From positions 28,724-92,723 of the forward strand of contig CAZADH010000001.1 in assembly GCA_964483805.1 (NCBI GenBank): 64,000 nucleotides of DNA, given 5' to 3'. Position 1 is the first letter of the stretch. Every line of letters starts with the position of its first letter. This DNA is from an uncultured bacterium. Its GTDB lineage: Bacteria; Muiribacteriota; Ozemobacteria; Ozemobacterales; Ozemobacteraceae. Below are positions 1-62,723 of the stretch, one piece after another. Made by a program: the position numbers and the translations under genes. Below the pieces are notes generated by a model. The model did no database searches. It was not told the DNA's origin and worked only from the letters and a program-made list of their open reading frames with translations.

Positions 1-1227
1 GTGCCCCGGGCGGTGCGTGGCGACCCGAACCGGTTGCGTCAGGTCCTCACCAATCTGGCCGGCAATGCCATCAAGTTTACGGAAACCGGTGAGGTGGTCA
101 TCCGTGTCGATCCGGTCGAGGTGAATCCCACCGACACCATCGTGCGGTTCTCGGTCACCGACACCGGCATCGGCATTCCCACTGATCGCGTCAATCGCCT
201 GTTCAAGAGTTTCTCGCAGGTCGATGCCTCGATGACCCGCAAATACGGAGGGTCCGGATTGGGGCTGGCGATCAGCAAACGGCTGGTGGCCTTGATGGGT
301 GGCGCCATCGGCTTTGACAGCCGGCGCGGCGCGGGTTCGACCTTCTGGTTCACCGCGCGGCTCGGGGTGCGCCCCGGTGTGGTCGAGGCCCCCGTCGATC
401 CGCTGGTGAAAGGGCAACGCCTTCTTCTGGTCGAAGGGCACGGTGCCACCCGCGAATCGTTGCAGGTCATGCTGAAACAGTGGGGTTGTGCCATTGACAC
501 CGTGGTCGAGGGCAAGAATGTCGAGTCGCTGCTCGTCGAGGCACAGAGTGGAAGTCGTGCATACAATGTAGTTCTCATTGGCAGTGATCTGCCCGATATC
601 TCATGTGATGAGTTGGGCCGACGGTTGCGACAGAATCCGCTGTTGCACGAGATGCGCCTGGTGCTCCTGTCGTACTGGGGACAGCACGACGATCCGACGT
701 TCTGGCGTGGGGCCGGGTTCTCCGGCATCCTCACCCGGCCGGTGCGACGCCGGCAGTTTGTCGAGTTGTTGCGGCGGCTCTGTGTGGGCGGCGATGCGGC
801 GGGCGCGGTCGTGGAAGGTGATGGCGAGCGCGGACTGGGCGAGCGCGTGTTGGTGGCGTTGGTCGATTCCGGTGAGCGCGACCAGGTGGCGAAGGTGTGT
901 GCCGATCACGACTGGACCCACCTGCTCGTCGAGAACACCCACGACTTGCTGCTCGAGATCCTGACCTCGAATCCTAAGTTGTTGATCGTCGAGTTGCGCG
1001 GTGGCGATTTCGACGGGACCGAATTGGCCGAGGCGATCCGCCGACTCGAGCTTGGGCGCGACCGTCGGGTGCCGATGATTGCCGTGACGGCACCAATGAC
1101 CAAGTCGCAGCAGGCCCGCGCCATGATGGCGGGGGTCGACGAGATCCTGGTCCGACCTTTGTCGGCCGATGCTGTGGCCCAGGCGTTTCGGCGCCGCCTG
1201 CTGGCGACGAAGGAAGGCGACAATTGA
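1..1227 (+). CDS. Hybrid sensor histidine kinase/response regulator; 5'-truncated by the window edge, with a HATPase_c C-terminal part followed by two receiver-like domains
   Basis: ATP-lid motifs NLAGNAIKF...DTGIGIP...GGSGLGLAISK are visible, followed by two CheY-like receiver segments. The ORF runs from position 1 without a start codon and ends at TGA 1225-1227. Confidence 0.8.
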   Translation: MPRAVRGDPNRLRQVLTNLAGNAIKFTETGEVVIRVDPVEVNPTDTIVRFSVTDTGIGIPTDRVNRLFKSFSQVDASMTRKYGGSGLGLAISKRLVALMGGAIGFDSRRGAGSTFWFTARLGVRPGVVEAPVDPLVKGQRLLLVEGHGATRESLQVMLKQWGCAIDTVVEGKNVESLLVEAQSGSRAYNVVLIGSDLPDISCDELGRRLRQNPLLHEMRLVLLSYWGQHDDPTFWRGAGFSGILTRPVRRRQFVELLRRLCVGGDAAGAVVEGDGERGLGERVLVALVDSGERDQVAKVCADHDWTHLLVENTHDLLLEILTSNPKLLIVELRGGDFDGTELAEAIRRLELGRDRRVPMIAVTAPMTKSQQARAMMAGVDEILVRPLSADAVAQAFRRRLLATKEGDN

Positions 1228-2426
1228 GCGGCACGCAACGCGCTGTCCACCTGCTCGTTCTCGTCGTCGTGCTGTTGACGGCATCGTCACCGACGACGGC
1301 CGACAATGCGCCCAAGGAGTGGCTCGGCAACAAGTTTCCGGTCGTGTGGCCGCCGAGCGCGTATCAGGGCCGGCCGCTGCCGGCACTCGACCGCTTGTTT
1401 CATCGCACCGATGGGTGGACGGGTGGCGACGGCATCTACTCGGTGCGCCTGGCCCCGACGCGGGTGCTGTGGCTGTTTTCCGATAGTTTCGTCGGCAGTC
1501 TGGTGGACGGCAACACGCGGCGTGGGTCGACGATGATCCACAACGCCGTCGCGATTCAAGACGGCGACGATCCGATGGTGGTGCGACCACGGTTTTATTA
1601 CCGTACTACGAAGGATGGTAAGCCGGCTTCGTTTATCGACGCGCCCGACGGGCGGGGGTTTGTCTGGATCTACGCCGGGGCGATGACCACGCGTGGCTTG
1701 TATTTCTTTCTCATTCAGATCGAACCGACCAGCGATGTGCAGGCGTTCGGGTTTCGCTCGATCGGCATGTGGCTGGCCCATGTGGCTGATCCCAGTGGTT
1801 CACCGAGTCACTGGCGCATTACGACCACGCGAGTCCCTGGCAGTGTGTTCACGCCCGGTTTGAATCGTATCTGGGGTTCGGCGATGCTCGAGCACGACGG
1901 GTTCATCTATATCTATGGCACCGACGAGGAGTTGCCGGCCACGGCGACGACGAGCAAGCGGTTGATCGTGGCGCGCGCGCCGGTCGATCATCTGGGTGAC
2001 TTTGCGCAGTGGCGGTATCGCTGTGGCAACGCGTGGGTCGATGACCCGGCGCGCGTGACGCCGCTGACCTCGGGCATGGCCAACGAGTTCTCGGTGACTT
2101 GCAGCGAACGGCATCGCGACTTTGTCATGGTGCTCAGTGAGAGCGGGTTGTCGTCGCGCATCGTGCGCCGGCGGGCCCGGCATCCCTGGGGGCCGTGGGA
2201 CGCGCCGCGGTGCGTCTTCGCGGTCGAGATGCCCGTCCCGCCGCCACACCAGTTGTTCACCTATGCGGGCAAGGCCCACGCGGTCTTCAAGCTCGGCCGG
2301 CACGAACTGGTCGACCCCGACGAGATGGTGGTCAGTTACGTGATCAACTCGTGCAACTTTGCCGATCTCATCAACGATGCCACCCTGTATCGACCACGCT
2401 TTGTCGCCTGCCGGCTGTGGCCGTAA
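1224..2426 (+). CDS. Secreted hypothetical protein, possibly a DUF4185-like beta-propeller or glycosidase-like fold
   Basis: Candidate TTG start at 1224, overlapping the stop of the upstream kinase. An N-terminal hydrophobic signal-like segment (LLVLVVVLLTASSPTTA) is present. A DGWTGGDG motif was noted; family assignment is from memory only. Confidence 0.45.
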   Translation: MSGTQRAVHLLVLVVVLLTASSPTTADNAPKEWLGNKFPVVWPPSAYQGRPLPALDRLFHRTDGWTGGDGIYSVRLAPTRVLWLFSDSFVGSLVDGNTRRGSTMIHNAVAIQDGDDPMVVRPRFYYRTTKDGKPASFIDAPDGRGFVWIYAGAMTTRGLYFFLIQIEPTSDVQAFGFRSIGMWLAHVADPSGSPSHWRITTTRVPGSVFTPGLNRIWGSAMLEHDGFIYIYGTDEELPATATTSKRLIVARAPVDHLGDFAQWRYRCGNAWVDDPARVTPLTSGMANEFSVTCSERHRDFVMVLSESGLSSRIVRRRARHPWGPWDAPRCVFAVEMPVPPPHQLFTYAGKAHAVFKLGRHELVDPDEMVVSYVINSCNFADLINDATLYRPRFVACRLWP

Positions 2427-2565: not shown

Positions 2566-2904
2566 TCAACCTTTTGTAAATATCATGCCGTGGAACTTCT
2601 GATAGCCTTCCTGGCGGACGGTGCCGATGTGGCCCTTGACCTTCATGCCGATCTTGGGTTCGTCGATATCGAGTTGGGCGGTGATCCGCTGGCCGTTTTC
2701 GAGTTCGACGATGCCGAGTGACAAGGTCAATACATCGAAGTCGGCGGGCAGGGTGTGCAGACGCGTGAAGGTCAGCAGTTTGCCGTTGGTCGGCAGGGGT
2801 TGCGTGTCGAACTCGTGATGGCCGCACTTGCGGCAGCGCGAGCGGTTCGGGTAATGCAGGGTCGAGCACTTCTTGCAGGCGTAGCCGAGAATCTGTTTGT
2901 CCAT
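2566..2904 (-). CDS. DUF35-family Zn-ribbon/OB-fold protein, the partner protein of SCP2-type thiolases
   Basis: Zinc-ribbon signature C-x2-C...C-x2-C (CKKCSTLHYPNRSRCRKCGH) followed by an OB-fold-like region. Its ATG lies 3 nt after the TGA of the upstream thiolase reading frame. Confidence 0.8.
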   Translation of the reverse strand: MDKQILGYACKKCSTLHYPNRSRCRKCGHHEFDTQPLPTNGKLLTFTRLHTLPADFDVLTLSLGIVELENGQRITAQLDIDEPKIGMKVKGHIGTVRQEGYQKFHGMIFTKG

Positions 2905-4936: not shown

Positions 4937-6214
4937 CTATCTCTCCAGGGTCGCGAGTCGGCTGAAGATGCCGTCGACGAACTCCTCGAGCCAGGTGCTG
5001 CCCAGCAGCGGGTTTTGAAACAGGCCGATGATCGTGCCGTGGTCGCGGGTCGCGACCGTGCCCATGTGGGTCCAGATGCCGGGCTGGACGGGTCCGGTGG
5101 CCCAGTCGACGATCGGACTGTTGGCGGGGCCCCGCATCGAGAGCGTATTGACGATGCCGTCGTTGGGTTGCCATGCGCCGGCCTGGCCCGGCGGCACGGC
5201 CCTGCCCGCGTAGTTGCCCATCGCGGCGGCAGCCGGCCAGAGCACGGGGTTCATGTGCATGTCGGCGAGGTTGATGTCGGTGCCGGGCAACCGGTAGGTC
5301 ATGCGATTGCTGTAACTCATGTAGTAAATACAAGGGAATACGCGGATCTGCCGATTCAGTTCGTGGGCGCCTTTGATCGACAGATCCCACGACGAGATGT
5401 CGCGGGTGTTGCCGAGCGTACGGCGCGCGCGCGAAAGAAAAGCGGAGACGCTTTCGCCGGGTTGTCGTTGCAGATCCCATTGGTCGAGATCGAAGTCGCA
5501 GACGATGTTCTCACTTCCGCTGGCCAGGGCCATGACCGCGGCGAGGATCTTCTCGGCCTGGTGCCAGAGCAGGTTGCCGACGATCTCGACCAGCGTGGTG
5601 CCGTTGTGCGGAGTCGAGATCGTGGTGAGCGAGAACACCCAACGTTCATTGGTGCCGGCGCCGAAGTAGTCGCGGGCGAGCAACTCGGTGAGCAGGCGGA
5701 TCGTCTGGCCACCCATGCTGTGGCCGACCAGGTGGACCGGGTGGGCGGCGTCCCATTGCGGATACAGCCCGGGCCAGGTCTCCCCGAATCGTTTGTGGCC
5801 AAAGGCCGCCGCGTGCTGCTCGCCGAAATCGAGGCGGCCTCCCTTGATCTGCCAGAACAGTTCGCAGGCGCGATCGTGGTTCGATGAATACGGCCCGACC
5901 GAGGCGGTGAGACCGCGCATACCGTAGGTTGCCACGCGCTTCTCGATGTCGAGAATGGTGCCGCCCCAATACAGGAAACCGAGCATCTCGTCGCGGCCCC
6001 AGCCATTGAAGCCGTGCACGAGGACGACGGGGCAGTCGCGCCCGTGCACGCGCGATTCGGCGGCGCCGGCGAGGATCGGTGCGGTCACGCCCAGGACGAG
6101 CAACAGCGCGACGCAGGCTCCTGGCAGATGCCGCAACCCCTTGGTTTTGGGGAACGCGCAGCCGGATCGGTCGTTTAGCGTGGTCAGGCTCGGAGGGCGA
6201 GGGTCGTGAAACAT
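4937..6214 (-). CDS. Secreted alpha/beta-hydrolase, triacylglycerol lipase family
   Basis: Oxyanion and nucleophile motifs LVHGFNGW and GHSMGG with an N-terminal signal peptide; resembles Gram-positive-type lipases. Confidence 0.75.
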   Translation of the reverse strand: MFHDPRPPSLTTLNDRSGCAFPKTKGLRHLPGACVALLLVLGVTAPILAGAAESRVHGRDCPVVLVHGFNGWGRDEMLGFLYWGGTILDIEKRVATYGMRGLTASVGPYSSNHDRACELFWQIKGGRLDFGEQHAAAFGHKRFGETWPGLYPQWDAAHPVHLVGHSMGGQTIRLLTELLARDYFGAGTNERWVFSLTTISTPHNGTTLVEIVGNLLWHQAEKILAAVMALASGSENIVCDFDLDQWDLQRQPGESVSAFLSRARRTLGNTRDISSWDLSIKGAHELNRQIRVFPCIYYMSYSNRMTYRLPGTDINLADMHMNPVLWPAAAAMGNYAGRAVPPGQAGAWQPNDGIVNTLSMRGPANSPIVDWATGPVQPGIWTHMGTVATRDHGTIIGLFQNPLLGSTWLEEFVDGIFSRLATLER

Positions 6215-6323: not shown

Positions 6324-7970
6324 ATGTCGAATCTGTTGAAAATGATCGGTGCCGCGCTCTGTCTGTACCTTTTGTTCTTCCACGCCATTGGCGATCTGCC
6401 GTTGATCGACCCCGATGAACCGTTCTACGGCCAGGTGGCCAAAGAGATGGCGCGGGGTGCAGGTTGGCTGACGCCGCACTACGACGGCAAGGTGTTCTGG
6501 GACAAACCACCGCTCTATTACTGGTTGTCGGGTTACACCACGGCGGTGTTCGGTGCGAATGGATTGGGGGCGCGTCTGCCGGCGGCGGTGGCAGCCGTGC
6601 TGCTGACCCTGCTCGTGGGTGCCTGGGCCGCCGCGGAGTTCGGTGCGACGGTGGCTGTTTTTGCGGCTGCGGTGTTTGCCACGTGCCTGCACGCGATCAT
6701 CTTGTCGAAGGCTGCGGTGACCGACATGGTGCTCGCGCTCAACCTGGCGAGTGCTTTGTATTGCTATCGGTGTTGGTTGCGTGCCGAGGGTTCCGCGACC
6801 TACGTGTGGGCAGCGGCCTTCGGGGTGGCGGCGGGGCTGGCCCTGCTGACCAAGGGTCCGCTGGCCTTCATTCTGCTTGCCGTTGCCCTGACCATTCACC
6901 TGGTGACGTCCGGGCAGGTGGCGAAGCTCGAGCGCGGTGGGGCGACCGGGGTCGGCATGGCCCTGGTCGTCGGTCTGCCGTGGTTCATGACAATGTATGG
7001 TGTTCATGGCGATTCGTTCGTGCAGAAGTTCATCATCGCCAACAACTTTGGCCGGTTCTTCAGTGCCGAACACCCGGAGATCACCGGGGGCTGGTACTCG
7101 TACCTGATGAACTTTCCGACGTTGCTGCTCTTCTTCTTCCCGTGGAGCCTGTTTCTGCCCCAGGCACTGCTGCACGCCTGGCGTCGCGACGACCCCGATG
7201 CGCGGTTGCCGTTGATCTGGCTGGTGACCGTTTTTGCGTTCTTCTCGACTGCGAAGACGCAGTTGGTCACCTATATCTTTCCGCTGTATCCGGCGGCCGC
7301 GGTGCTGGTCGGGCGCTATTGGCACGACGCATTGGCGGCCGATCACGCACCCGCCGGTTTGCGTCGCGGCGTGCTGGGGGTCGTTGGTTTTTCGGCGTTT
7401 CTCGGCATTGGTCTGGCCGGCACCGCGGCGGCAAAGTATCCGGGGGCTGAGTTGGTTGGCCTGGGCCTCGGGTTGATTGCCGTGGCGGCGAGCGTGCTGG
7501 CACTGCGTCAGTTCGATGGCTACGTCGGAACCGCAGGTGCGGCGGGCCAGAGTGGTGGCGCGGTGATCTTCCAGCCGCGGCCCGCGGTGTTCTGGGCGTT
7601 GGCGGTCGGCATGGTGCCGTTCGCGGTCTACCTGATGAGTGTGCTGTTTCCGCGGGCCTTGCCGTTTGTCAGTACCGATGAGTTGGCGCGGGTCGTGCGC
7701 TCACGGTTTGCTGCCGCCCAGGTCGTGGCGTTGAAACTGGGGCATCGCACCAGCCTGCTCTACAACTTCGACTTCCAGCCGATGCCGACCGAGAGCATCG
7801 CCGAAGCGCGGCAGCGCTTTGCTTGTCTTGGCCCGGTGGTGGTTTTGTGCCAAGACAAGTTCGTCGACCAGGTGGCGTCGGCAACGGCGCCGGTCGCGCG
7901 GCAAGGCAAGATCGTGGCCTTGGCCAACACGGCGGCGTTGGCGGCCGCACAAGAGAACTGCGTGCGTTGA
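6324..7970 (+). CDS. Family GT39/GT83 glycosyltransferase (ArnT/PMT-like 4-amino-arabinose or mannosyl-transferase family), polytopic membrane protein
   Basis: N-terminal DPDEPFYGQVAKEM...WDKPPLYYWL motif typical of ArnT/PMT enzymes, with many hydrophobic helices. Confidence 0.8.
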   Translation: MSNLLKMIGAALCLYLLFFHAIGDLPLIDPDEPFYGQVAKEMARGAGWLTPHYDGKVFWDKPPLYYWLSGYTTAVFGANGLGARLPAAVAAVLLTLLVGAWAAAEFGATVAVFAAAVFATCLHAIILSKAAVTDMVLALNLASALYCYRCWLRAEGSATYVWAAAFGVAAGLALLTKGPLAFILLAVALTIHLVTSGQVAKLERGGATGVGMALVVGLPWFMTMYGVHGDSFVQKFIIANNFGRFFSAEHPEITGGWYSYLMNFPTLLLFFFPWSLFLPQALLHAWRRDDPDARLPLIWLVTVFAFFSTAKTQLVTYIFPLYPAAAVLVGRYWHDALAADHAPAGLRRGVLGVVGFSAFLGIGLAGTAAAKYPGAELVGLGLGLIAVAASVLALRQFDGYVGTAGAAGQSGGAVIFQPRPAVFWALAVGMVPFAVYLMSVLFPRALPFVSTDELARVVRSRFAAAQVVALKLGHRTSLLYNFDFQPMPTESIAEARQRFACLGPVVVLCQDKFVDQVASATAPVARQGKIVALANTAALAAAQENCVR

Positions 7971-8591: not shown

Positions 8592-8662
8592 TGCGCTTGT
8601 CTCCGCTCGTTGCTATAAAATGCACCGTGCCGTCGGTGCGGTGTTGGAAATACAAAGTATGG

Positions 8663-11754: not shown

Positions 11755-11797
11755 GTATTTACTCCACTGTCGTGGGTGCGAACCCGAGGTCGAAACC

Positions 11798-13237: not shown

Positions 13238-13285
13238 CCGGGCGGCCATAACGGCCGAGGTGACAGAGACTGGTGTGTAAATACA

Positions 13286-53137: not shown

Positions 53138-53283
53138 GCAGGCCTCCGGATGCGGGGATGATGCCGGTATGGTATCCGGGAGAGCTGCCGTTTGTCATCC
53201 TCTCGGCCGCTCTGGTGCCGTTGCCAACGAAACCCGGCCACGTGCCGCCGGAAAGCGGATCGGAAAGAATCTGCTATATAGGT

Positions 53284-53320
53284 TGACTTATATATAGCGA
53301 ATATAATATATAGTAAGTCA
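53284..53320. promoter_or_regulatory. AT-rich inverted repeat (TGACTTATATATA...TATATAGTAAGTCA) immediately upstream of the ArsR-family gene; candidate operator and promoter
   Basis: A near-perfect 13-14-bp dyad ending 10 nt before the ATG at 53330. It is an AT-rich island in GC-rich DNA. Confidence 0.55.
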
Positions 53321-53329
53321 TCGATATCC

Positions 53330-53662
53330 ATGAAGAAGCTGACGACACTCAAATCCGAGAATCTCGAGCACCTGGCGCAGGTGTTGAAGGCGGTGGCGCA
53401 TCCGTTGCGGTTGCGCCTGCTCGATCTGCTGTGCCGGTCCGAGCACACCGTGAACGAGCTGACCGCGCATCTGGGCATTGCTCAGGCGCTGGTGTCGCAG
53501 CAACTCAAGACGATGCGATCGGCGGGCATTCTGGCGGTTCGCCAGGACGGGGCGCGGCGCATCTACTCGCTGGCTTTGTCGCAACTGCGCCACTTGATCG
53601 AGTGCATGGCGTCGTGTCAGGACCATTGCCGGCCAGCAGTGAAATCATCCAGGAGGTCATAA
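53330..53662 (+). CDS. ArsR/SmtB-family HTH regulator, SqrR/BigR-like Cys arrangement
   Basis: Winged-helix motif HPLRLRLLDLLCRSEHTVNEL...QALVSQQLK. Cys residues in helix 2 (LLCRSE) and near the C-terminus (ECMASCQDHC). Confidence 0.7.
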   Translation: MKKLTTLKSENLEHLAQVLKAVAHPLRLRLLDLLCRSEHTVNELTAHLGIAQALVSQQLKTMRSAGILAVRQDGARRIYSLALSQLRHLIECMASCQDHCRPAVKSSRRS

Positions 53663-53663
53663 C

Positions 53664-56162
53664 ATGGAAGCTCAAACGATCGGTTCCGCGAAGTCTCTGC
53701 GCCTGGTAATCGTCGGTGGTGTGGCCGGAGGCGCGTCGGCAGCGGCGCGCGCGCGGCGACTCGATGAACACGCCGAGATCATCGTCCTCGAGGCGGGGCC
53801 GTACGTCAGTTTCGCCAACTGCGGGCTGCCCTATCATCTGGGGGGCGTGATCGAAGATCGCGACGACTTGCTGGTGCAGACGCCTGAGTCGTTGAAAGAG
53901 CGATTCAACCTCGACGTGCGGGTGCGGCACGAAGTGACGGCGATCGACGCAGCGGCAAAAAAGGTCACGGTCAAGAACCATGCCTCCGGCGCCACCGAGG
54001 CAATCACCTACGACAAGTTGATTCTCGCACCGGGAGCGGCGCCGTTCCGGCCGCCGATCAATGGCCTCGACCTGCCGAATGTCTTCAACCTCTGGACGAT
54101 TCCAGATCTGGACAATGTATTGCAATACATCAAAGCGAAGTCTCCCCGCCACGCGACGGTCATCGGCGGTGGCTTCATCGGCATCGAGGTGGCCGAGAAC
54201 CTCCGGCACAAGGGGCTGGCGGTCACGGTGGTCGAGCGTGAGAAACAGGTGATGCCGCCGATCGACAGCGAGATGGCCGAGCTGTTGCATCAGCATCTGC
54301 GCCTGCATGGTGTCGACCTCAAGCTGGGTGCGAGCGTGACCGGCATCGTCGGCACGGGCGCCCGCACTGCCGTGCAGCTCGGCAGCGAGCCTCCGCTCGA
54401 GACCGATCTGGTCATCGTGGCCATTGGCGCGCGTCCGCGCACAGAGTTGGCCAAGGGCGCGGGCTTGAAGATTGGGGAGCGGGGCGGCATTGTCGTCGAC
54501 GATCGCATGCAGACCTCGAATCCCGATATCTACGCCGTCGGCGACGCGATCGAAGTGAAGGACCGCGTGACCGGCCTGCAGACGCTGATTCCGCTGGCAG
54601 GCCCGGCGAACCGGCAGGGGCGGATCGCCGCCGATCAGGTGTTCGGGCGCGACAGTCGCTACCGCGGATCGCAGGGCACGGCAATCTGCAAGATCTTCGA
54701 TCTCGCCGTGGCCATGACCGGGGCGAGCGAGAAGACGTTGAAGCGGCTGAAGATGCCGTATCAGAAGGCGATGATTCATGCGGCCAGCCATGCGGGGTAT
54801 TACCCTGGGGCGATGCCGCTGACTGTCAAGATTGTATTTACACCTGATACGGGCAAGGTTCTTGGCGCCCAGGCGATCGGCGCTGATGGGGCCGACAAAC
54901 GGGTCGACGTGCTGGCGACGGCGATTGCCGCAGGCATGACCGTTTACGATCTCGAGCATCTCGAGTTGTGTTACGCGCCGCCGTTTGGTTCGGCGAAGGA
55001 TCCGGTCAACGTGGTCGGCATGGTGGGCGCCAACCTGCTGCGTGGCGATCACCGTGGATTCCAGACCGATGACCTGGCTACGATGGCGCTCGACAAGGCG
55101 ATGTTGCTCGACGTGCGCACGCCGACCGAGCACGAGGCCGGCCACATTCCGGGGTCGGTGCTGATCCCGGTTGATGAGTTGCGGCCGCGGATGGCCGAGT
55201 TGCCGCGCGACAGGGAAATCTTGATCTATTGCCAACAGGGTTTGCGTGGGTATGTGGCGCAACGCCAGTTGGTGCAGAAAGGTTTCATCGTTCGCAATCT
55301 CGTGGGCGGTTACAAGGCCTGGGCGATGGCGAACCAACGGTTGTCGGGGCTCGGGGCGGTTCCGGTGCCGCACACGCAAACGTTCTGCAGCTCTCCGTCG
55401 ACGTCGCCGTCAGTGCCCGATACGGCGTTCGAGCTCGACGCGTGTGGGCTGCAGTGTCCGGGGCCCTTGTTGAAGATGCGCGAGCGCCTCGACGAATTGA
55501 AAGAGGGTCAGCGCCTGCGGATCATCGCGACCGATCCCGGGTTCCCTGCCGATGTTGCCGCCTGGGCGAAGCGCGCCGGGCACCGCCTGGTGTCGATGAA
55601 CCCGGAGAAGGGGCGATACATCGCGCTCGTGGAGCGTGGTCCCGTGGCGCCGCCGGTTGACACAAACGCGGCGCTGGCCGGCCTTGCGGGCAAGAAGAGA
55701 CTGACGATGGTCGTGTTCTCGAACGACCTCGACAAGGCGATGGCGGCGATGATCATCGCGAACGGTGCAGCGGCGATGGGGCTCGAGGTGACGTTGTTCT
55801 TCACCTTCTGGGGCCTGAACATTTTGCGCAAGGAGCAGCCGCCGGCCGTCGAGAAGGGTCTCATCGACAAGATGTTCGGCGCGATGATGCCGCGTGGTCC
55901 CGAGAAGCTGTCGCTCTCGAAGATGAACATGGGCGGCATGGGCACCATGATGATGAAGCAGGTCATGGCGCAGAAGAACGTGGCGTCGCTGCCTGAGTTG
56001 ATCGCGAGCGCCCGCAAGAACAAGGTCCGCTTCGTGGCCTGCACGATGTCGATGGACGTGATGGGCCTGAAGAAAGACGAACTGGTCGACGGCGTCGAAG
56101 AGGGCGGCGTCGCCGCCTATCTCGACTCGGCCAGCGATTCGACGATCAATCTGTTCATTTGA
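53664..56162 (+). CDS. CoA-disulfide reductase-type FAD/NAD(P) disulfide oxidoreductase fused to rhodanese, TusA-like and DsrE-like domains (persulfide/polysulfide reductase-like)
   Basis: VIVGGVAGG and SFANCGLPY (CoADR active-site Cys); rhodanese CQQGLRG; TusA CGLQCPGP; C-terminal DsrE-like segment MVVFSNDLDKAMAA...FTFWG. Confidence 0.8.
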   Translation: MEAQTIGSAKSLRLVIVGGVAGGASAAARARRLDEHAEIIVLEAGPYVSFANCGLPYHLGGVIEDRDDLLVQTPESLKERFNLDVRVRHEVTAIDAAAKKVTVKNHASGATEAITYDKLILAPGAAPFRPPINGLDLPNVFNLWTIPDLDNVLQYIKAKSPRHATVIGGGFIGIEVAENLRHKGLAVTVVEREKQVMPPIDSEMAELLHQHLRLHGVDLKLGASVTGIVGTGARTAVQLGSEPPLETDLVIVAIGARPRTELAKGAGLKIGERGGIVVDDRMQTSNPDIYAVGDAIEVKDRVTGLQTLIPLAGPANRQGRIAADQVFGRDSRYRGSQGTAICKIFDLAVAMTGASEKTLKRLKMPYQKAMIHAASHAGYYPGAMPLTVKIVFTPDTGKVLGAQAIGADGADKRVDVLATAIAAGMTVYDLEHLELCYAPPFGSAKDPVNVVGMVGANLLRGDHRGFQTDDLATMALDKAMLLDVRTPTEHEAGHIPGSVLIPVDELRPRMAELPRDREILIYCQQGLRGYVAQRQLVQKGFIVRNLVGGYKAWAMANQRLSGLGAVPVPHTQTFCSSPSTSPSVPDTAFELDACGLQCPGPLLKMRERLDELKEGQRLRIIATDPGFPADVAAWAKRAGHRLVSMNPEKGRYIALVERGPVAPPVDTNAALAGLAGKKRLTMVVFSNDLDKAMAAMIIANGAAAMGLEVTLFFTFWGLNILRKEQPPAVEKGLIDKMFGAMMPRGPEKLSLSKMNMGGMGTMMMKQVMAQKNVASLPELIASARKNKVRFVACTMSMDVMGLKKDELVDGVEEGGVAAYLDSASDSTINLFI

Positions 56163-56505
56163 TTCTCGGGGCGATGGACAGCCCCATCGCCGGATCTGCG
56201 TGGAAGGGAATGCCGGCCGTCGGGCCAGTTATGCAGGCAAGAGTCCGCAGATCGTCGGTGTAGAATACGTTGTATTGTTGTCCACACGGTCCCCGTTTCG
56301 CTAACGTGAAGCGGGGGCCGTGGTGTGTGTGGCGAACATTTTTTCCCGGGGCACCCTCGACGGCGGATGTTTACAGTGATTGAGTCCGCAGTCGAGGGGG
56401 TGCACTGTCGATGGATGCCATACGCCGATTGCTCGAAGACACGCTGCTGGCCAGGAATCCGGTAGCCGGAATGGTTGCCGCGGCACCGCCCGCACAAGAG
56501 GCATC

Positions 56506-57417
56506 ATGACCCGGCGCCACGACGAGGGTTACAAGCTCCTGTTCTCGCATCCCGAAATGGTGCGCGATCTCTTGCGCGGGTTCGTGCACGAACCGTGGGT
56601 CGAGGAACTCGACTTCACCACGCTCGAAAAGGAACCGTGCAGTTTCGTTGGCGATCGGCTGCGCGAACGGCGCGACGATCTCATCTGGCGGGTGCGTTGG
56701 CAGGGCAACTGGCTCTACGTCTATATCTTGCTCGAGTTTCAATCGAAGGTCGATCCGTACATGGCGCTGCGCATGATGTCGTATGTGTCGTCTCTGTGGC
56801 TCGACCTGCACGCCCGCAGGCGACTTCATCCCGATGGCTCGCTGCCGCCGGTGCTACCCGTCGTCTTATACAACGGACGCAAACACTGGACCGCGCCGGT
56901 CGAGGTTGCCGACCTTGTTGCGACGATGCCGGTGGGCCTCGATCGATTTCGTCCGCGCCTGACTCACCTGGTGATCGATGAGTTGCGCTGTGCCGAGAGC
57001 GACCTGCAGCCGGTGCGCAATCTGGTGGCGGTGTTGTTTCAGCTCGAGCACGGCCGCGACGAGGACACGCTGGTTCAGTTGATGCGGAACCTGCTTGTGT
57101 GGTTACATAGTGATGAACAACGAAGTCTGCGCAGATCATTCGCCGTCTGGATCCGCCGCGTGTTGCTGAACACCGATGTTGTCGGGCGGGTTGCGGTGTC
57201 GCAGGAAATCGGTGAACTGTCGGAGGCCACCGTCATGTTGGAAGAAAACATCAGATACATTATTGCCCGGCGCAAGGCCGAGGCGCGTGCCGAGGGCCGC
57301 ACCGAGGCCCTGCGCGCGACTGCACGGCGCATGCAGGGACTTGGCGTATCGGTGGCCGAGATTGCGAAGTTTCTCGGGATCACCGAAGACGCGGTGCGCG
57401 GCCTGCTGGAGTCGTGA
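56506..57417 (+). CDS. Rpn-family recombination-promoting nuclease/putative transposase (PD-(D/E)XK, YhgA-like)
   Basis: DDLIWRVRWQGNWLYVYILLEFQSKVD is typical of the Rpn/Transposase_31 family. Confidence 0.7.
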   Translation: MTRRHDEGYKLLFSHPEMVRDLLRGFVHEPWVEELDFTTLEKEPCSFVGDRLRERRDDLIWRVRWQGNWLYVYILLEFQSKVDPYMALRMMSYVSSLWLDLHARRRLHPDGSLPPVLPVVLYNGRKHWTAPVEVADLVATMPVGLDRFRPRLTHLVIDELRCAESDLQPVRNLVAVLFQLEHGRDEDTLVQLMRNLLVWLHSDEQRSLRRSFAVWIRRVLLNTDVVGRVAVSQEIGELSEATVMLEENIRYIIARRKAEARAEGRTEALRATARRMQGLGVSVAEIAKFLGITEDAVRGLLES

Positions 57418-57481
57418 GCGCCGGGTTGTGCGAGCAGCAAGTCACCATGGACGACACCACGTTTGGGGCGAGTTAAACGAA

Positions 57482-57507
57482 GCACCGCTTGCTTGCGCAA
57501 GCGGTGC
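57482..57507. terminator. Perfect 11-bp stem hairpin (GCACCGCTTGC ttgc GCAAGCGGTGC) between convergent genes
   Basis: Perfect inverted repeat in the gap between 57417 and 57538. Confidence 0.45.
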
Positions 57508-57537
57508 CATGAGCGCCGTGTCGTTGGCGACAGGTCG

Positions 57538-58206
57538 TCAGTCGACGTTGGCCGTCACCAGGATGACCGTGATCTGGTCACGCGCTTCGCCCTCGGCGAA
57601 GCGGACCAGCACCGGATCGATGTCGACGGCGCCAACCTGCGTGCCGCCAGGCAACTTGTAATCGAGGGTGGCATGCAGCCGATGCAGGCTGAGGCGGTCG
57701 CGCTCGGTGGTTAGATAGCGGGCCAGCACCTTGCGGCCTTCGGTGGTCCACTTGGTGCCGTGTTGCGAGATCGTGACCAGATCGAGAATCTCTTTTTTGG
57801 TGGTGGTCATGAGCGCCGTGTCGTTGACGTGGCGACCGTTGGCCTCATACTCATTGATGATGACCTGGCGAATGACCTGGGCAAGGGTCAGGTCGAGATC
57901 TTTCTCTTTGTCGGCGCGGACCGGGAACACTTCACGGCTCTGGCCGTCGACGGTCTGAAAGTAGGCGACCTGATACGTCACGCTGTGCTCGAAACCGGCA
58001 GGAGCAGCAACCGGAACCAGTTCGATGCGATCGAACGCGGCGACCGGAGCGCGGTCGGGTGTGGCCTGTGCGGCAGCAGCCATCTCGGCGAGAACCGCTT
58101 CGCCTGGCGCCACGGTTGCGGGCGCACCCACCACCGGACCCACCAAAAGAACAACGATGAAGGCAAAAACAGCAATACAACGAGAATACGAGAACACCAT
58201 GATCAA
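57538..58206 (-). CDS. Hypothetical secreted protein
   Basis: Signal peptide; no recognisable family. Confidence 0.4.
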   Translation of the reverse strand: MIMVFSYSRCIAVFAFIVVLLVGPVVGAPATVAPGEAVLAEMAAAAQATPDRAPVAAFDRIELVPVAAPAGFEHSVTYQVAYFQTVDGQSREVFPVRADKEKDLDLTLAQVIRQVIINEYEANGRHVNDTALMTTTKKEILDLVTISQHGTKWTTEGRKVLARYLTTERDRLSLHRLHATLDYKLPGGTQVGAVDIDPVLVRFAEGEARDQITVILVTANVD

Positions 58207-58448
58207 ACCCCACGAACCTCAACGAAATCGACCGGACGGTTTGCCCTGACGGGTTGGCGCCGGCATCCACTGAAGCACGGCAGTGTAGCAAATTCTGTGC
58301 CGTCTGTCACTATGTCTATCGACAAAGGCCGAAACCGGCATTAGATGCTGTTTCCCGTAGTCACTGCACGGTGGGTGAACGCTCGTTGTGCAGGCGCGGC
58401 ACCCCGGATTGCCAACTGTGCTCGACCTGTGACCACCCCGGTGGTCGG

Positions 58449-60149
58449 TTAATGCGCAGGAGTCGTCGTCGTGTAGAGATTGCCGATCGGGCGCAAACGG
58501 GCAAACCACGTCCCTTGCCTGAAGAACGCAACCTCGAGAACGGCTCCGCCGGCCGGTGGCCGCGCTTGATCGAAGAGAAAATTACCCAGCGACCAGGCAC
58601 AATTGGCGCGGTTGAGCAGGTCGAAGCTGCTCGCGACGTGCGGGTGGCAGCCGATGATCAAGGTGAAGCCCTGGGTCTCGAGCCATGACGCGACCTCACG
58701 TTGGCGGGGCGTGGGGGTGCACTGCCACTCGCGCCCCCAGTGCACGAATGCGAACGCCGGTTTGCCTGCATGAGGGAGCGGCAGATCGGCGACCGCCGGA
58801 GCGGACAGCAGTTGCACGATGCGCGGGTCGTTGTTGTCGAGGTCGGTCAGGGCGGTCAGCGTGAACGACCCGAGATCGACGGTCTGGAGATTGCCGACAA
58901 CGGTGAAGCGATTGTCATGCAATGTGTTGCACATTTCTCGATACCGGCGTGCACCGAAATCCCGACCGTGGTTGTTGGCCGTGATGACCACGCGCGCACC
59001 CAGGGCCCGCAACCACGACTGCGCGAAGAGCGGATCCATGGCAAGTGGGATCGGGGTCCGCGTGGGGTCGTCGGGATTTGCGAAGACCCCCTCGAGGTTG
59101 ACCGCGAGCGTTGCCGAACCCACCAGGTCACGGGCCGCTCGCAACGTGGCCGGCCCATGGTGCGGATTGGCGAGACGCGGCACCATGAAGCGTCCGAAGA
59201 AGGTATCGCCGGCGAAAGCCCAGGTGGGCGCGAGACCGGGGCGGGGAAAGCCCGGAGAATAGACGGCGGCGATGTAGCTGGTCGAACTGGCAATCGGTTC
59301 GGGGGCGTACTCCTGCGAGTTGCGATTGTCGATCACCCACGGTCGGGCACCGAAACGCTCGCGTTGCAGGCGCATCTGCAAATACATGGCGCCGAGACAG
59401 TCGCAGTGCTGCGGTTGTGACAACGAGGCGACCCGGCGCTCGTCAGCGCCGGCCAATACCTGCAGTGAGTCCTGGTCGTGTCGACGGGCGTCGAACGGCG
59501 TGAGGAAATGCGAATAATCAGTGCTTTGCACGACCAGAGTCGTGCTCGACACGAGCGGGGCAAGATATGAATACAGTGTATTCCAGTCTTCGACTCGACT
59601 CTTGTTGGCGATGGCGATGGCCAGTATCGGGGTGTTGGGCAATATCCGGGCGCAGAATGGCACGAGCGCCTGCACGGCGTGTTCGTGCGAAAACAGGCCC
59701 GACGGAGAAACCAGCGGGCAACCACGCAGTTGAGCGACGTCGCTGCCGGCAACCGGCACCGGGCCGAAACAGGTATTCAGATCGCGGTCACACACCGAGA
59801 ATAGGGAGGTGCCTCGTGAGTAATGATCGGGGCCGATGATGACGATCTTGTCGTAACGTTTTCCGCGAATGGTTGTGAAAGCAGCGGCAATGAGGTCGAC
59901 GGCCAGTAGGTGGTGCGACACGACCAACCCGGTGACCGATTCGGCAAGCGGCGCCTGGGCAGCGGTCGCGACGGCCGGGTCAAACAACGACGCGTCGGCA
60001 TACATCGGGGCAATCGGCAAGACGCCGACGTCGGTGGCCAGAGGGGCGCTCACCACCGGCAGCGCCATGATGAACAACAGCGTCAGGGCTGCAACCGAGC
60101 GCGCGGAGCTCGCATGCGCGACCAACCCGACCGTGAGTGCGGTTTTCAT
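58449..60149 (-). CDS. Fusion protein: Memo-like (AmmeMemoRadiSam system protein B family) N-domain plus CapA/PGA-type metallophosphoesterase C-domain; secreted or membrane-anchored
   Basis: Memo-like segments IVIIGPDHY, SHEHAVQALVPF, VVQSTDYSHF. CapA-like segments AFAGDTFFGR, VVITANNHGRDFG, FVHWGREW, IIGCHPHV. Confidence 0.65.
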   Translation of the reverse strand: MKTALTVGLVAHASSARSVAALTLLFIMALPVVSAPLATDVGVLPIAPMYADASLFDPAVATAAQAPLAESVTGLVVSHHLLAVDLIAAAFTTIRGKRYDKIVIIGPDHYSRGTSLFSVCDRDLNTCFGPVPVAGSDVAQLRGCPLVSPSGLFSHEHAVQALVPFCARILPNTPILAIAIANKSRVEDWNTLYSYLAPLVSSTTLVVQSTDYSHFLTPFDARRHDQDSLQVLAGADERRVASLSQPQHCDCLGAMYLQMRLQRERFGARPWVIDNRNSQEYAPEPIASSTSYIAAVYSPGFPRPGLAPTWAFAGDTFFGRFMVPRLANPHHGPATLRAARDLVGSATLAVNLEGVFANPDDPTRTPIPLAMDPLFAQSWLRALGARVVITANNHGRDFGARRYREMCNTLHDNRFTVVGNLQTVDLGSFTLTALTDLDNNDPRIVQLLSAPAVADLPLPHAGKPAFAFVHWGREWQCTPTPRQREVASWLETQGFTLIIGCHPHVASSFDLLNRANCAWSLGNFLFDQARPPAGGAVLEVAFFRQGTWFARLRPIGNLYTTTTPAH

Positions 60150-60219
60150 GGCGGCTGTCCGCAGGCCGATGCGGAACAGGTGGTTCCGAGGCGACCCGGG
60201 GTGAACAAATACAAAATAC

Positions 60220-62658
60220 TTACTGCTCGTTGACCAGAGCCTTGTAGTAATCGGGTTTTGCTGGCAGTTCCGGGGGTTGCCCGTAGACTCGCTTCTGCCA
60301 GGCGGCATCGTCGAGGCGCCGGGCGAGCGGTTCGGTGAATTCGTAGTGGTTGTAAGTGATGCCGATGGCCAGGCGGGTCTGTTTTTCGTTGCCGATCAGT
60401 GCGAGGATCACGTAGGGCTCGGCGGTTGCTTGATACAGGACCTGCGCTTTGGCGATGTCGGTGTGAATGTCGGCCACGAGTCCCGAGCGGAAATCCTCAT
60501 CGCGGTGGAACACAACATCACCATAAGGTTTCGCCATGTATGACAGTTGCATGACGCGCAATTTCTCGTGCTCGTCTTCGCTCAGCGTCGTGCCGGCGAG
60601 TTCCTTCTCGGCCAGTGACGTCAGGAAGTCGATGTCGTTCTTGAAGCGGTTGATGGTGCCATACTCCTCGAGTTCCGAGGCCATCTCAGGGAATTGCTGC
60701 AGGCCGCTGTGAAAATACGCCAACAGGCGTTGCAGTTGATACCAGAAGGCGAGGTTGGGTTCGACAAAGCCGCGCGGTACCGGGGGAATCTTCTTCTCAT
60801 CGTCGCCGCCGCCGAATTCGGCGTAGTTCTGTTTGGCGTAGAGCAGAGTGTCGTGCTTCAGTTCGGCGTAAGAACCCAGCAGTTCCTGAATCTGCTGCAA
60901 CGGATAGAGTGGGCTCTGCATGTACTGCGGATAGCCCTTGCCGAAAGTGCGCGTCAGCGTGCCGAGGGTTTTCAACCACGCGCCCGCGACGCTGACGAAC
61001 CACTCGTCGTCCTTGACGCGGGAAATCGTTGCTTCGGCGCGCAACAAGAGATCGTGGAACTTCTTCTGATCGTCAGGATTCTGCGAAACCACGGTGCGGT
61101 AGAACTGTTCCGACAGATCGCGGGCCGTGCGACTGCCGAGTGCGGCAGCGACGAACAGCGCCGTGGGTGTCGATGGCAGGGTAAACTCGGTCTTCTCCTG
61201 GCCGGCGGTGAGCCGGCCGAGGGTGAGGGCATCGAAGGTGAAACGCTGGCCGAAGACGCGAAAACCTTTGGTCTTTGCGAGCATGTCGGCCTTGGTCATG
61301 CCGGGGACCGCGTCGTCGATGAACGCATCGCTGAGAATGCGCGGGGGCGCAAGTTCACCGAGACGGGCGGTGATCGCCTTGATGAACTTGTCGTCGACCG
61401 CTGCGGTGGGAGCGAGCTCGGCACGGCCTGCCACCGACGTGACGAAGTTCCGCCAGACCGGGTAACCGATGTCGTCGGCTGGGCCGGCGAAGAACCCGGT
61501 GACACTCATGATCCGGCGAAAGGTGTTGACCAGGGGTTGCCCGTTGCGATCGGGGTTGGCCATGAGCCAGGCGACGAGCAGGGCGTCGCGAACACCGTCG
61601 GTCGTCTCGAACAACCATGTATTGCGCCCGAAATACATCATAGTGCGAAAGTATGCACGTAGGTTTGATGACTTCGTGTAGTGGCTGCGCGGCGTGAACT
61701 GGGTGTAGTCGGCTGGCCGCGGTGGGCCGTCGACGTATTGACCAAACAACGGCGAGATCTCGAGTTTCTCGGCCGCGTAGATCAGGTCCAATTCCCGCTC
61801 GATCTGCTCAGCCGTAGGGGCGTCGAAATCGCGACGCCAGGTGTCGGCGAACAGTTTTTTGGCCGTGACGGCGGTGTCGGCATGGTCTTTTTCCTCGGCG
61901 GTCTGGGCGGCGCCTTCGGGATGCCGTGGATACGACGCCACCGAGTTCTCGAGCAGGATCAGCGGCACGGTGAACTGAGCGGCCACGAGTTGCAGTCGCC
62001 CGGCCAGTGGACCGGTGGCCTTGTTCTTCGCCTCGATCGCCCGTTGGCGCATCTCGCGGGTGAAATGGAGCAGGTCGTGGCGCAGCGAGGTCTTTTCGAG
62101 TTCTTCGATGGTGTTCTCGAGGTACTTGTGGAACGCATGCAGCACGATGGCCGGAGTGACAAGCCGGGTGTTTTCAGGAAGACGCTCGCAGGGCACAGGG
62201 TTGCCGGCAATCTCATCGAACATGCCGAGCATTTCGTCCCAGGGCAGCGCCGCGTATCCCGCAAACTGGACCTGGCCTTTGAAGCGGGTGGCGCTCTTGG
62301 GCACGAGCAGAAACTTGTGCTGGTTGAGAAAGGCTATTTGCTTCTTGTCGAGTTTGAGTTTCAGATAGTCGAGCACGGCGCGTTTGTTGACCGCGCGCTC
62401 GAGCGTGCGTGCCGTGTCGGCCACGTTGGGTTCGATCCGGGGTGTCTGGGTTCGCGGGAGCGCGCCGAAGCGAGGCACCTGGCCGTCCGGCAGCGGAATG
62501 GCATCGAGGCCCGCGAGCGCCGGCGCCGGTGCGGCGCCGTTGCTGGAATCGCCTTGTTGTTCGGTGATCCACGATTCAACGGCAAAGAGGGGGCCGGGCG
62601 CAGCAATGCCGGCGGTAACGATGATGGCGACGAGCAGGGGCGTAAGAAAGCGGCGCAT
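60220..62658 (-). CDS. Large secreted hypothetical protein (about 812 aa)
   Basis: Signal peptide. Possibly a DUF3160-type family (recalled from memory); no catalytic motifs recognised. Confidence 0.4.
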   Translation of the reverse strand: MRRFLTPLLVAIIVTAGIAAPGPLFAVESWITEQQGDSSNGAAPAPALAGLDAIPLPDGQVPRFGALPRTQTPRIEPNVADTARTLERAVNKRAVLDYLKLKLDKKQIAFLNQHKFLLVPKSATRFKGQVQFAGYAALPWDEMLGMFDEIAGNPVPCERLPENTRLVTPAIVLHAFHKYLENTIEELEKTSLRHDLLHFTREMRQRAIEAKNKATGPLAGRLQLVAAQFTVPLILLENSVASYPRHPEGAAQTAEEKDHADTAVTAKKLFADTWRRDFDAPTAEQIERELDLIYAAEKLEISPLFGQYVDGPPRPADYTQFTPRSHYTKSSNLRAYFRTMMYFGRNTWLFETTDGVRDALLVAWLMANPDRNGQPLVNTFRRIMSVTGFFAGPADDIGYPVWRNFVTSVAGRAELAPTAAVDDKFIKAITARLGELAPPRILSDAFIDDAVPGMTKADMLAKTKGFRVFGQRFTFDALTLGRLTAGQEKTEFTLPSTPTALFVAAALGSRTARDLSEQFYRTVVSQNPDDQKKFHDLLLRAEATISRVKDDEWFVSVAGAWLKTLGTLTRTFGKGYPQYMQSPLYPLQQIQELLGSYAELKHDTLLYAKQNYAEFGGGDDEKKIPPVPRGFVEPNLAFWYQLQRLLAYFHSGLQQFPEMASELEEYGTINRFKNDIDFLTSLAEKELAGTTLSEDEHEKLRVMQLSYMAKPYGDVVFHRDEDFRSGLVADIHTDIAKAQVLYQATAEPYVILALIGNEKQTRLAIGITYNHYEFTEPLARRLDDAAWQKRVYGQPPELPAKPDYYKALVNEQ

Positions 62659-62723
62659 GGACAATCCTTTTCTGAAGTGGTGTCGGCGAGTGACCGACAT
62701 ACAGTGTATTACGTCGCGGCCGG

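Follow-up and report, generated by a model that had tools for sequence, protein, structure and literature searches.

Short words iterated throughout a genome are rare, and their functions have been debated or were decades in coming; the role of HIP1 (highly iterated palindrome 1) is unsettled. Uptake sequences, which are asymmetric 9- to 12-mers present in hundreds of identical copies, are to our knowledge found in two families only. The NBS sites of Noc, SBS of SlmA, matS of MatP, and parS of ParB are 12- to 16-bp palindromes that have dimeric readers and number tens per genome. Here, we analyzed an AT-rich hexamer, AATACA (TGTATT on the opposite strand), which recurs along a 64,000-base stretch of DNA from an uncultured bacterium of the Ozemobacteraceae (assembly GCA_964483805.1, contig CAZADH010000001.1, positions 28,724 to 92,723), hereafter referred to as the window. 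We found that the hexamer belongs, as the stronger half, to a degenerate inverted repeat of 13 bp, AATACA-N-TGTATT, which is enriched both within and between genes. By analogy, its closest counterpart appears to be HIP1, and the next closest the uptake sequences.

HIP1, the word GCGATCGC of cyanobacteria with its "alternate HIPs," is a hyper-abundant palindrome found in and between genes, and the targets of orphan methyltransferases lie inside it (PMC4390886). Its copies are mostly perfect and are present in 15- to 300-fold excess; conservation analysis indicates that it seems to be held by selection, and a role in nucleoid structure has been proposed (PMC5861425). Recombination or transformation has also been suggested as its purpose. 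A different model, put forward by Elhai, invokes biased repair of the very-short-patch type (PMC4390886). In addition, a preprint reports that HIP1 raises the efficiency of natural transformation (bioRxiv 10.1101/2024.09.10.611283). Uptake sequences, for their part, prefer poorly conserved amino acids and are largely genic, with 65% located in genes in H. influenzae (PMC2817400). A literature search with the motif strings of the window returned only two useful matches. One was the methylation of TACNNNGTA, a motif reported in Streptococcus mutans UA140 (PMC7291102), and the other was the TTAC-N3-GTAA LexA box, a type represented by the LexA motif of Bdellovibrio, which resembles the dyad (PMC8565304).

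The window has a G+C content of 62.6%, and its + strand carries more G than C and more T than A throughout. Gene calling on the basis of open reading frames and third-position G+C gave 40 genes; coding sequence makes up ~95% of the window and intergenic DNA 4.5%. There are 33 copies of AATACA on the + strand and 19 of TGTATT, altogether 52 in 64 kb, or ~1 per 1.2 kb. The original prediction had listed 39 positions, of which 34 were exact and five were off by 1 to 10 bases (13270 is 13280, 44063 is 44064, 51867 is 51868, 52343 is 52344, and 60207 is 60208), while 13 copies had been overlooked. It had also put the composition-based expectation at a handful; a first-order Markov model, which is of the base-composition type, gives 6.7 copies. 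For the hexamer and its reverse complement, third-order and maximal-order models predict 24.6 and 37.7 copies, respectively; these values are high owing to an enrichment of the overlapping sub-words themselves. For a window made up of coding DNA, the appropriate null has to preserve protein sequences and codon usage. A shuffle of synonymous codons inside each gene gave 12.9±3.1 hexamers as compared to 47 genic copies, and none of 1000 shuffles reached the observed number. Longer words behaved in the same way when counted with their reverse complements: under this shuffle, 27 genic copies of CAATACA were found against 4.6 expected, 17 of GCAATACA against 2.1, and 7 of GTCAATACA against 0.1. The commonest long exact words in the window are CAATACA (28 copies), GCAATACA (17), and AGCAATACA (10). 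The 10-mer CAATACATCG, previously noted four times, is indeed present at 2728, 20449, 43621, and 44063 on the + strand and once more on the - strand, and CAATACAATGTCTG occurs twice, at 22742 and 51867, as described.

A second palindrome, GTAC, is avoided in the genes, with 81 copies (positions 672, 1603, 3475, and others) as compared to 152-175 expected under codon-aware nulls, or ~0.5x. Because avoidance of xxG-TAC pushes tyrosine codons to TAT, it inflates words of the TGTAT type. Thus, we set up a stricter null, in which third codon bases were permuted only among codons sharing the first two bases and the next base. This procedure keeps the proteins, the codon boxes, and every dinucleotide, and a Metropolis constraint prevents GTAC from exceeding its observed count. 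With this null, 20.2±3.1 hexamers are expected; the highest number in 55 sampled states was 29, still well below the 47 genic copies. The extended forms of the motif stayed 4- to 7-fold in excess, with 31 genic copies of AATACNNNGT against 7.8±2.2, 18 of AATACANNGT against 3.3±1.3, and 17 of TACNNNGTA against 2.5±1.4. The over-representation proposed in the original prediction is therefore borne out by the codon-aware test that it had suggested, here run on the window, since the excess holds under both shuffles; it is in fact stronger than had been described. An artifact of the shuffling method was ruled out, as 20 control loci of 13-22 kb from other genomes with 57-68% G+C gave ratios near 1 in the same pipeline and the stricter null leaves z≈9-11. 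A general clustering of AT-rich codons was likewise excluded: taken together, AT-rich hexamers fall short of expectation (1347 observed versus 1684 expected), and AATACA is the commonest among them. The one-base variants of AATACA are at expectation, except for AATACG (2x) and for AGTACA, one transition off, which is present 8 times versus 18 expected. The PvuII-type palindrome CAGCTG is found once, at 25090, as compared to ~27 copies expected from codon shuffles (0.04x). The scarcity of CAGCTG is classic restriction-site avoidance, and that of GTAC suggests that this genome has a restriction system specific for GTAC or loses the word through methylation-driven decay. The dyad itself was rejected as a restriction-modification target, as it is enriched while GTAC and CAGCTG are avoided.

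The architecture of the site became apparent from its flanks. The original prediction had described them as constrained, and this is correct: G or T is found at -2 in 43 of 52 copies, C or A at -1 in 43 of 52, and G at +8 in 37 of 52, followed by T at +9 in 27 and A at +10 in 26. What had been read as a downstream NNG is the onset of the reverse complement of the hexamer and thus a second half-site. The spacing is fixed. AATAC-N3-GTATT is present in five copies (11747, 33510, 44376, 56264, and 59570), while AATAC-Nx-GTATT at any other x between 0 and 30 yields at most one copy (a single one, at x=19). Similarly, TAC-N3-GTA occurs 22 times and 0-7 times at other spacings, and the reversed arrangement of the arms showed no comparable spacing-specific excess. 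When all 4-mer dyads with gaps of 0-8 were compared, TACA-N1-TGTA (5 versus 0.24 expected) and ATAC-N3-GTAT ranked as the top two. Other types of operator were ruled out: TACA-N2-TGTA (the BlaI/CopY type) has 0 copies, and GTA-Nx-TAC is not enriched. Dyads matching at least 9 of 12 positions number 50 in the window, 42 of them genic against 10.7 expected (~4-fold). At least 10 of 12 positions are matched by 20 sites; the 15 genic ones compare with 1.7 under the codon shuffle or 2.0±1.2 under the stricter null, a 7- to 9-fold excess.

We then broke the sites down by the number of matches in each half. The 6/4 class was observed 10 times against 0.72 expected, 6/3 15 times against 1.87, and 5/5 4 times against 0.87. 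A smaller excess was seen for 5/4 (12 versus 6.9) and for lone hexamers, in which the other half matches at two positions or fewer (20 versus 9.9, ~2-fold), and sites of the class 5/≤3 were at expectation. Thus, the enrichment depends on both halves together, in an additive manner, as a reader with two half-sites, for example a dimer on double-stranded DNA, would generate it. The symmetry extends outward, with GTC, GTA, or AGC before AATACA and GAC or TAC after TGTATT, so that the flank-extended dyad is approximately GT[C/A]-AATACA-N-TGTATT-[G/T]AC, with weaker flanks.

Several lines of evidence support the original proposal that selection acts on the DNA word and not on the protein. As previously noted, the reading frame varies between genes: all six frame and orientation classes are above expectation, five of them clearly and the sixth with one copy. 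The words are built from rare codons. In the frame xxT-GTA-TTx, we found 14 copies versus 0.41 expected, and these account for 14 of the 62 GTA valine codons of the window. Sense and antisense copies number 32 and 15, a ratio equal to that of the null (8.4:4.6); transcripts are therefore not the target, and a transcript-level function was ruled out. The encoded residues are often unusual among homologs. In the coenzyme A (CoA)-disulfide reductase fusion protein, residues 151-156 (NVLQYI) are all in the minority among 80 homologs; N151 is found in 1 of 78, V152 in 7, L153 in 8, and Q154 in 6, and I390 and V391 in 0 of 80. Over its full length, this protein carries the plurality residue at 495 of 822 positions. 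The perfect dyad in the Memo-like/PGA_cap gene encodes N-T-L-Y-S, where homologs carry D/E, S/R/A, L, A/I/V, and A/Q; the position of N190 is D/E in 40 of 43 homologs, and Y193 is found in 1 of 43. The same protein has M255 where 38 of 43 homologs have Q. In the purA-like protein, H252 replaces a Q present in 46 of 52 homologs, and its CAC codon supplies the "AC" and thus completes the dyad. Across these cases, motif codons match the plurality residue at 9 of 23 positions as compared to a background of ~60%, which comes from one gene only. This is suggestive of a tendency of motif codons to carry minority residues.

The placement of the copies is even, both along the window (chi-square p=0.97) and within genes (Kolmogorov-Smirnov p=0.33). 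Between 45 and 47 of the 52 hexamers lie inside genes, and 24 of the 40 genes contain at least one. Intergenic DNA, at 4.5% of the window, contains 7 hexamers (0.72 under the null) and 4 of the 20 best dyads, a density 3-4x that of the genes. A motif favored everywhere would be denser between genes because coding constraint would limit it elsewhere. Three giant paralogs with 51-53% identity have two sites in homologous places, and every other site is private to one of them, which indicates that sites turn over and rules out that the motif was spread by copying of repeats or paralogous genes.

The hexamer also shows a strand preference. The original prediction of ~70% in one orientation was not borne out, as the share is 63% (33:19). 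Nevertheless, the bias is significant (binomial p=0.003) because the T- and G-rich + strand predicts only 42% of the copies as AATACA. When measured against the codon null, the + strand shows an excess of 5.9x and the - strand one of 2.2x, and this applies to genes in either orientation. G-rich words are skewed far more strongly. The octamer CGGCGGTG occurs 22 times on the + strand (6541, 6583, 14223 ... 61869) and twice on the - strand (44120 and 44914), which amounts to 92%. In the comparison with the codon null, it gave 24 versus 9.9 expected on the + strand and 2 versus 4.3 on the - strand, again in genes of both orientations, and GGCGGTG is distributed 35:5. Thus, GC skew and G-rich skewed words suggest that the + strand is the leading one and that G-rich words are the usual polar signals in this genome, with CGGCGGTG being a more typical candidate for a Chi/KOPS-like signal (KOPS, FtsK-orienting polar sequences) than the AATACA dyad.

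As far as can be seen, the motif is lineage-specific among everything compared. Besides the 20 control loci, 80 loci retrieved through the CoA-disulfide reductase showed no motif excess, and neither did two loci that carry a purA-like cluster (L082 and L083). The closest homologous locus (L081) has 51% protein identity and keeps the DUF3160-Memo gene order. It was considered as a relative with the motif and rejected, since it has a weak excess of AATAC (z≈3-4) and no dyad. Leaving aside the proteins of the window itself, the best protein matches among 5.8 billion sequences were just 44-60% identical, which indicates that the organism belongs to an isolated, uncultured lineage. The same organism is represented by 2-3-kb contigs, 100% identical, in the metagenome-assembled genome (MAG) GCA_022711295.1, in JGI 3300009776 and JGI 3300010429, and in ENA and Logan; the 1.3 kb of extra sequence that these assemblies provide contained no motif site.

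The symmetric 13-mer, its fixed spacing, and its additive halves speak for a symmetric protein that recognizes duplex DNA. The density, the even spread, and the price paid in codons and amino acids speak for a genome-wide force instead of a regulon. An operator of a transcription factor with a limited regulon was ruled out, since most copies are genic and evenly spread within genes. We therefore tentatively favor, at a little less than even chances, a HIP-like iterated dyad that is read by a dimeric DNA-binding or DNA-modifying protein. The putative reader would be a symmetric, probably dimeric, sequence-specific protein acting on duplex DNA and encoded elsewhere in the genome. The sites would be held at their density, in genes and spacers alike, by a force on the DNA itself, either selection for binding or biased repair tied to modification of the site, and this force would be strong enough to impose rare codons and some amino acid replacements. 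Such a dimeric protein would, by inference, be of the methyltransferase or nucleoid type. TACNNNGTA is the inner core of the dyad and a reported methylation motif of S. mutans UA140; enzymes of this specificity therefore exist, which makes a methyltransferase plausible.

The comparison with HIP1 shows both likeness and difference. Like HIP1, the dyad is palindromic, hyper-abundant in and between genes, independent of the reading frame, lineage-specific, and unexplained by peptides or RNA, and both have an inner core that is a plausible methyltransferase target (CGATCG/GATC in HIP1 and TACNNNGTA in the dyad). However, HIP1 is GC-rich and uninterrupted, while the dyad is AT-rich in a GC-rich genome and interrupted, and it shows a moderate strand polarity, unlike HIP1. 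Palindromes with dimeric readers, as predicted for the dyad, are also known from the sites of Noc, SlmA, MatP, and ParB, which are often genic; these sites are regionally restricted, whereas the dyad would number thousands and be evenly spread. Several points weigh against a HIP-like dyad with a dimeric reader. In contrast to the mostly perfect copies of HIP1 and their 15- to 300-fold excess, the dyad has one perfect copy (12/12, at 59570) and three of at least 11/12 in 64 kb, and its excess is 4- to 9-fold. Avoidance of GTAC causes part of the raw hexamer excess, as seen from the rise of the expectation from 12.9 to 20.2. The moderate polarity of the better half is accounted for neither by a purely symmetric reader nor by any of the other explanations considered here. 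No methyltransferase, restriction, or DNA-binding candidate to which the motif could be linked is encoded in the window, and all counts were drawn from this one 64-kb window of the genome. A bolder version, which we regard as rather unlikely, is that the dyad represents an undescribed genome-wide signal, namely an AT-rich, interrupted, degenerate palindrome in a GC-rich genome with a dedicated dimeric reader, used for chromosome organization or for self-DNA recognition in gene transfer.

The original prediction saw a resemblance to DNA uptake signal sequences. Known uptake or self-recognition sequences include the DNA uptake sequence of Neisseria (GCCGTCTGAA; Neisseriaceae) and the uptake signal sequence of Haemophilus (AAGTGCGGT; Pasteurellaceae), where the preference of a competence receptor together with recombination would raise a motif genome-wide. 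The density and genic location stand. At ~1 per 1.2 kb, the dyad is close to the ~1 per kb of uptake sequences, and, like them, it is mostly genic in all frames and both orientations, denser between genes, built of a strong core and weaker flanks, placed where residues are poorly conserved or in the minority, and absent from unrelated genomes, being specific to this one; moreover, HIP1 itself is reported in the preprint to aid natural transformation (bioRxiv 10.1101/2024.09.10.611283). In contrast, the asymmetry and the long identical core are not found. Uptake sequences are asymmetric, 9-12 bp long, and nearly identical among copies, whereas the dyad consists of a 6-bp invariant half and a contributing second half, with a spacing-specific enrichment that requires both. 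Its invariant core of 6-7 bp (the 9-mer AGCAATACA occurs 10 times and the 10-mer CAATACATCG 5 times) would separate self from foreign DNA poorly, and the 40 genes of the window include no com or pil gene, just as they include no methyltransferase or restriction gene. We consider an uptake function unlikely; a nucleoid-protein site or a modification target fits the anatomy better. The latter could also arise without any function, if mismatch repair near a methylated target of the TACNNNGTA type turned near-matches into matches. This would agree with a k-mer landscape that plainly bears the mark of forces of the DNA-modification type (GTAC 0.5x and CAGCTG 0.04x), with the depletion of AGTACA (8 versus 18) alongside the enrichment of AATACA, with the methylation of TACNNNGTA elsewhere, and with the similar model of Elhai for HIP1. 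Yet, the excess is only partly removed when the observed number of GTAC copies is enforced, the other one-step neighbors of the hexamer are at expectation and not depleted, and no methyltransferase or Vsr-like gene is at hand in the window. For HIP1, conservation analysis favored selection over biased repair (PMC5861425). A functionless by-product of repair thus has, in our view, a low probability, lower than that of an uptake sequence.

The suggestion of a polar, replication-oriented signal, either Chi (read by RecBCD/AddAB) or a KOPS-type guide of a DNA translocase, which would be read on one strand and in one direction, is disfavored. Chi and KOPS or architecture-imparting sequences share with the dyad a short over-represented word and a preference for one strand. 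The 33:19 bias is opposite to what the skew in base composition predicts (p=0.003), the excess on the two strands differs (5.9x versus 2.2x) in genes of both orientations, and in word length (6-7 bases) as well as density the motif is within what known Chi sites span. However, such signals are asymmetric, usually G-rich, and 75-95% co-oriented with replication, with a strand skew above 80-90% for KOPS or architecture-imparting sequences, whereas the motif is a palindrome-like dyad of fixed spacing with 63% in one orientation, and its symmetry argues against a role of this kind. A skew of 63% is also weak for the class when CGGCGGTG (22:2, 92%) and GGCGGTG (35:5) occur in the same window. We regard a polar signal as highly improbable. 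Hardly more credit is due to the explanation that no dedicated reader exists and that the excess arises statistically from biases in codon pairs, dinucleotides, or oligonucleotide avoidance, or from a local peculiarity of the window. It draws on the maximal-order Markov expectation (37.7 versus 52, z≈2.3), on the finding that GTAC avoidance alone lifts the codon-aware expectation from 12.9 to 20.2, and on the examined sequence being 64 kb only. The maximal-order figure, however, is high merely because the sub-words are enriched for the same reason, and under the stricter null AATACNNNGT still stands at 31 versus 7.8±2.2 and the dyad of at least 10/12 at 15 versus 2.0±1.2. Furthermore, the enrichment is confined to one spacing, is absent from the 20 control loci, and is also present in intergenic DNA (7 versus 0.72).

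Table 1. Dyads and half-sites of the AATACA motif in the window (position 1 is its first base).
Site	Positions	Strand	Match to dyad	Location or remark
AATACAGTGTATT	59570-59582		perfect, 12/12	Memo/PGA_cap gene; encodes N-T-L-Y-S
AATACGTTGTATT	56264-56276		11/12	intergenic, upstream of YhgA-like (Transposase_31) gene
CATACAGTGTATT	62698-62710		11/12	overlaps DUF3160 gene start codon
AATACTGAGTATT	11747-11759		perfect AATAC-N3-GTATT	end of radical-SAM/SPASM gene
AATACTGCGTATT	33510-33522		perfect AATAC-N3-GTATT	giant paralog B; paralog C has AATACACGGT at equivalent position
AATACGCGGTATT	44376-44388		perfect AATAC-N3-GTATT	genic
CATACAATGTAGT	560-572		10/12 (halves 5+5)	genic
CATACACTGTATG	42796-42808		10/12 (halves 5+5)	5' end of purA-like gene
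AATAAATCGTATT	20343-20355		10/12 (halves 5+5)	convergent gene end
AATACAAAGTATG	8649-8661	+	10/12 (halves 6+4)	intergenic
AATACAATGTAAA	18365-18377	+	10/12	MFS transporter gene
AATACAATGTCTG	22743-22755	+	10/12	genic; coding strand GAC ATT GTA TTG
ACTACTGTGTATT	25580-25592	-	10/12 (halves 4+6)	paralog A; homologous to 36053 site
ATTACTTTGTATT	36053-36065	-	10/12 (halves 4+6)	paralog C
AATACACAATATT	28258-28270	+	10/12	paralog A
AATACACGGTGTT	38744-38756	+	10/12	paralog C
AATACATTGTGAT	45782-45794	+	10/12	kinase-like gene
AATACAACGTAAT	51248-51260	+	10/12	overlaps stop codon
AATACAATGTCTG	51868-51880	+	10/12	genic
AATACACAGTATG	52344-52356	+	10/12	genic
AATACA	2729-2741	+	9/12 (second half 3/6)	
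AATACA	5327-5339	+	9/12 (second half 3/6)	
AATACAATG...	13280-13292	+	9/12	abuts GT2 gene start codon
AATACAAAGT...	15153-15165	+	9/12	
AATACATCGTAAC	20450-20462	+	9/12	intergenic
AATACA	21828-21840	+	9/12	
AATACA	23532-23544	+	9/12	divergent intergenic region
AATACA	32414-32426	+	9/12	
AATACACCGTGTG	42060-42072	+	9/12	purA-like gene, read CAC GGT GTA TTG
AATACATCGTGTG	43622-43634	+	9/12	
AATACAGTGTCAA	44946-44958	+	9/12	
AATACAAAATACT	60208-60220	+	9/12	between Memo gene (true start 60149) and DUF3160 gene
AATACA	61632-61644	+	9/12	
...TGTATT	6750-6762	-	9/12 (halves 3+6)	
...TGTATT	21451-21463	-	9/12	
...TGTATT	26122-26134	-	9/12	
TGGACAATGTATTGCAATACA	54109-54129		9/12, then back-to-back TGTATT-GC-AATACA	CoA-disulfide-reductase fusion gene
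...TGTATT	61611-61623	-	9/12	
TGTATT	54833-54838	-	half-site	AAG ATT GTA TTT (I390, V391)
AATACA	59381-59386	+	half-site	read ATG TAT TTG (M255)
TGTATT	1699-1704	-	lone half-site (other half ≤2/6)	
AATACA	5968-5973	+	lone half-site	
TGTATT	10295-10300	-	lone half-site	AGCAATACA on - strand
AATACA	12738-12743	+	lone half-site	GTAAATACA
TGTATT	16124-16129	-	lone half-site	
AATACA	19106-19111	+	lone half-site	
TGTATT	23875-23880	-	lone half-site	AGCAATACA on - strand
TGTATT	28391-28396	-	lone half-site	
AATACA	34334-34339	+	lone half-site	GTAAATACA
AATACA	35540-35545	+	lone half-site	GCAATACA
TGTATT	39365-39370	-	lone half-site	GCAATACA on - strand
AATACA	44064-44069	+	lone half-site	AGCAATACA
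TGTATT	44347-44352	-	lone half-site	
AATACA	48916-48921	+	lone half-site	
TGTATT	51464-51469	-	lone half-site	GCAATACA on - strand
AATACA	58174-58179	+	lone half-site	AGCAATACA

Apart from the dyad, the window contains the decamer palindrome GGCGATCGCC, which includes the HIP1 octamer and occurs 6 times (3790, 14862, 16815, 19804, 32356, and 46742) as compared to ~0.9 expected when the codons of the genes are shuffled. Words containing GATCG are generally enriched in the window.

The gene content of the window is that of ordinary bacterial accessory genes, among them radical-SAM enzymes, glycosyltransferases, a purA-like cluster, a YhgA-like nuclease, a CoA-disulfide-reductase/rhodanese/TusA/DsrE fusion, and three tandem paralogs of ~1,750 residues; no tRNAs were found in the 64 kb. 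The tandem genes (23713-39483) encode proteins that combine a papain-like Peptidase_C1 domain, fibronectin type III, and a C-terminal FGE-sulfatase (C-type-lectin-like) domain, and their third-position G+C of 0.69-0.71 is below that of their neighbors. The purA-like cluster is conserved; it consists of a protein-kinase-like, an unknown, a pyruvate-kinase-barrel-like, and an adenylosuccinate-synthetase-like gene and is found at 41381-46803 in the window, at 6369-11443 in L082, and at 4151-11407 in L083. In distant genomes, it adjoins a large NAD-synthase gene. The kinase of the cluster has weak similarity to the model of a methylation-associated defense-system kinase. The Memo-like/PGA_cap fusion, named AmmeMemoRadiSam system protein B in some sources, adjoins the DUF3160 gene both in the window (58449-62700) and in L081 (5338-9426). 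An ArsR-family regulator lies directly upstream of the 832-residue CoA-disulfide-reductase fusion (53282-56162). The best matches of the fusion are 44-57% identical and scattered over many phyla, a distribution that suggests its horizontal spread. Contigs of four other assemblies of the organism (L085-L088; window 56025-58754) all stop at window position 58754, and the MAG contig (L085) departs from the window upstream of ~56085, next to the gene of the YhgA-like (Transposase_31) protein, a pattern suggestive of either a rearrangement or a break in the assembly near this position.

Should the excess prove absent genome-wide, the finding would shrink to a local curiosity. If it extends through the genome, the dyad would serve as a sequence signature for binning the contigs of this organism and make a clean test case for finding the reader. 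As a third and structurally different example, in a lineage without close sequenced relatives, it would show that genome marking of this kind arises repeatedly. An undescribed genome-wide signal, if true, would amount to an independent invention of the principle behind HIP1 and the uptake sequences outside cyanobacteria, Neisseriaceae, and Pasteurellaceae, with strand polarity added.

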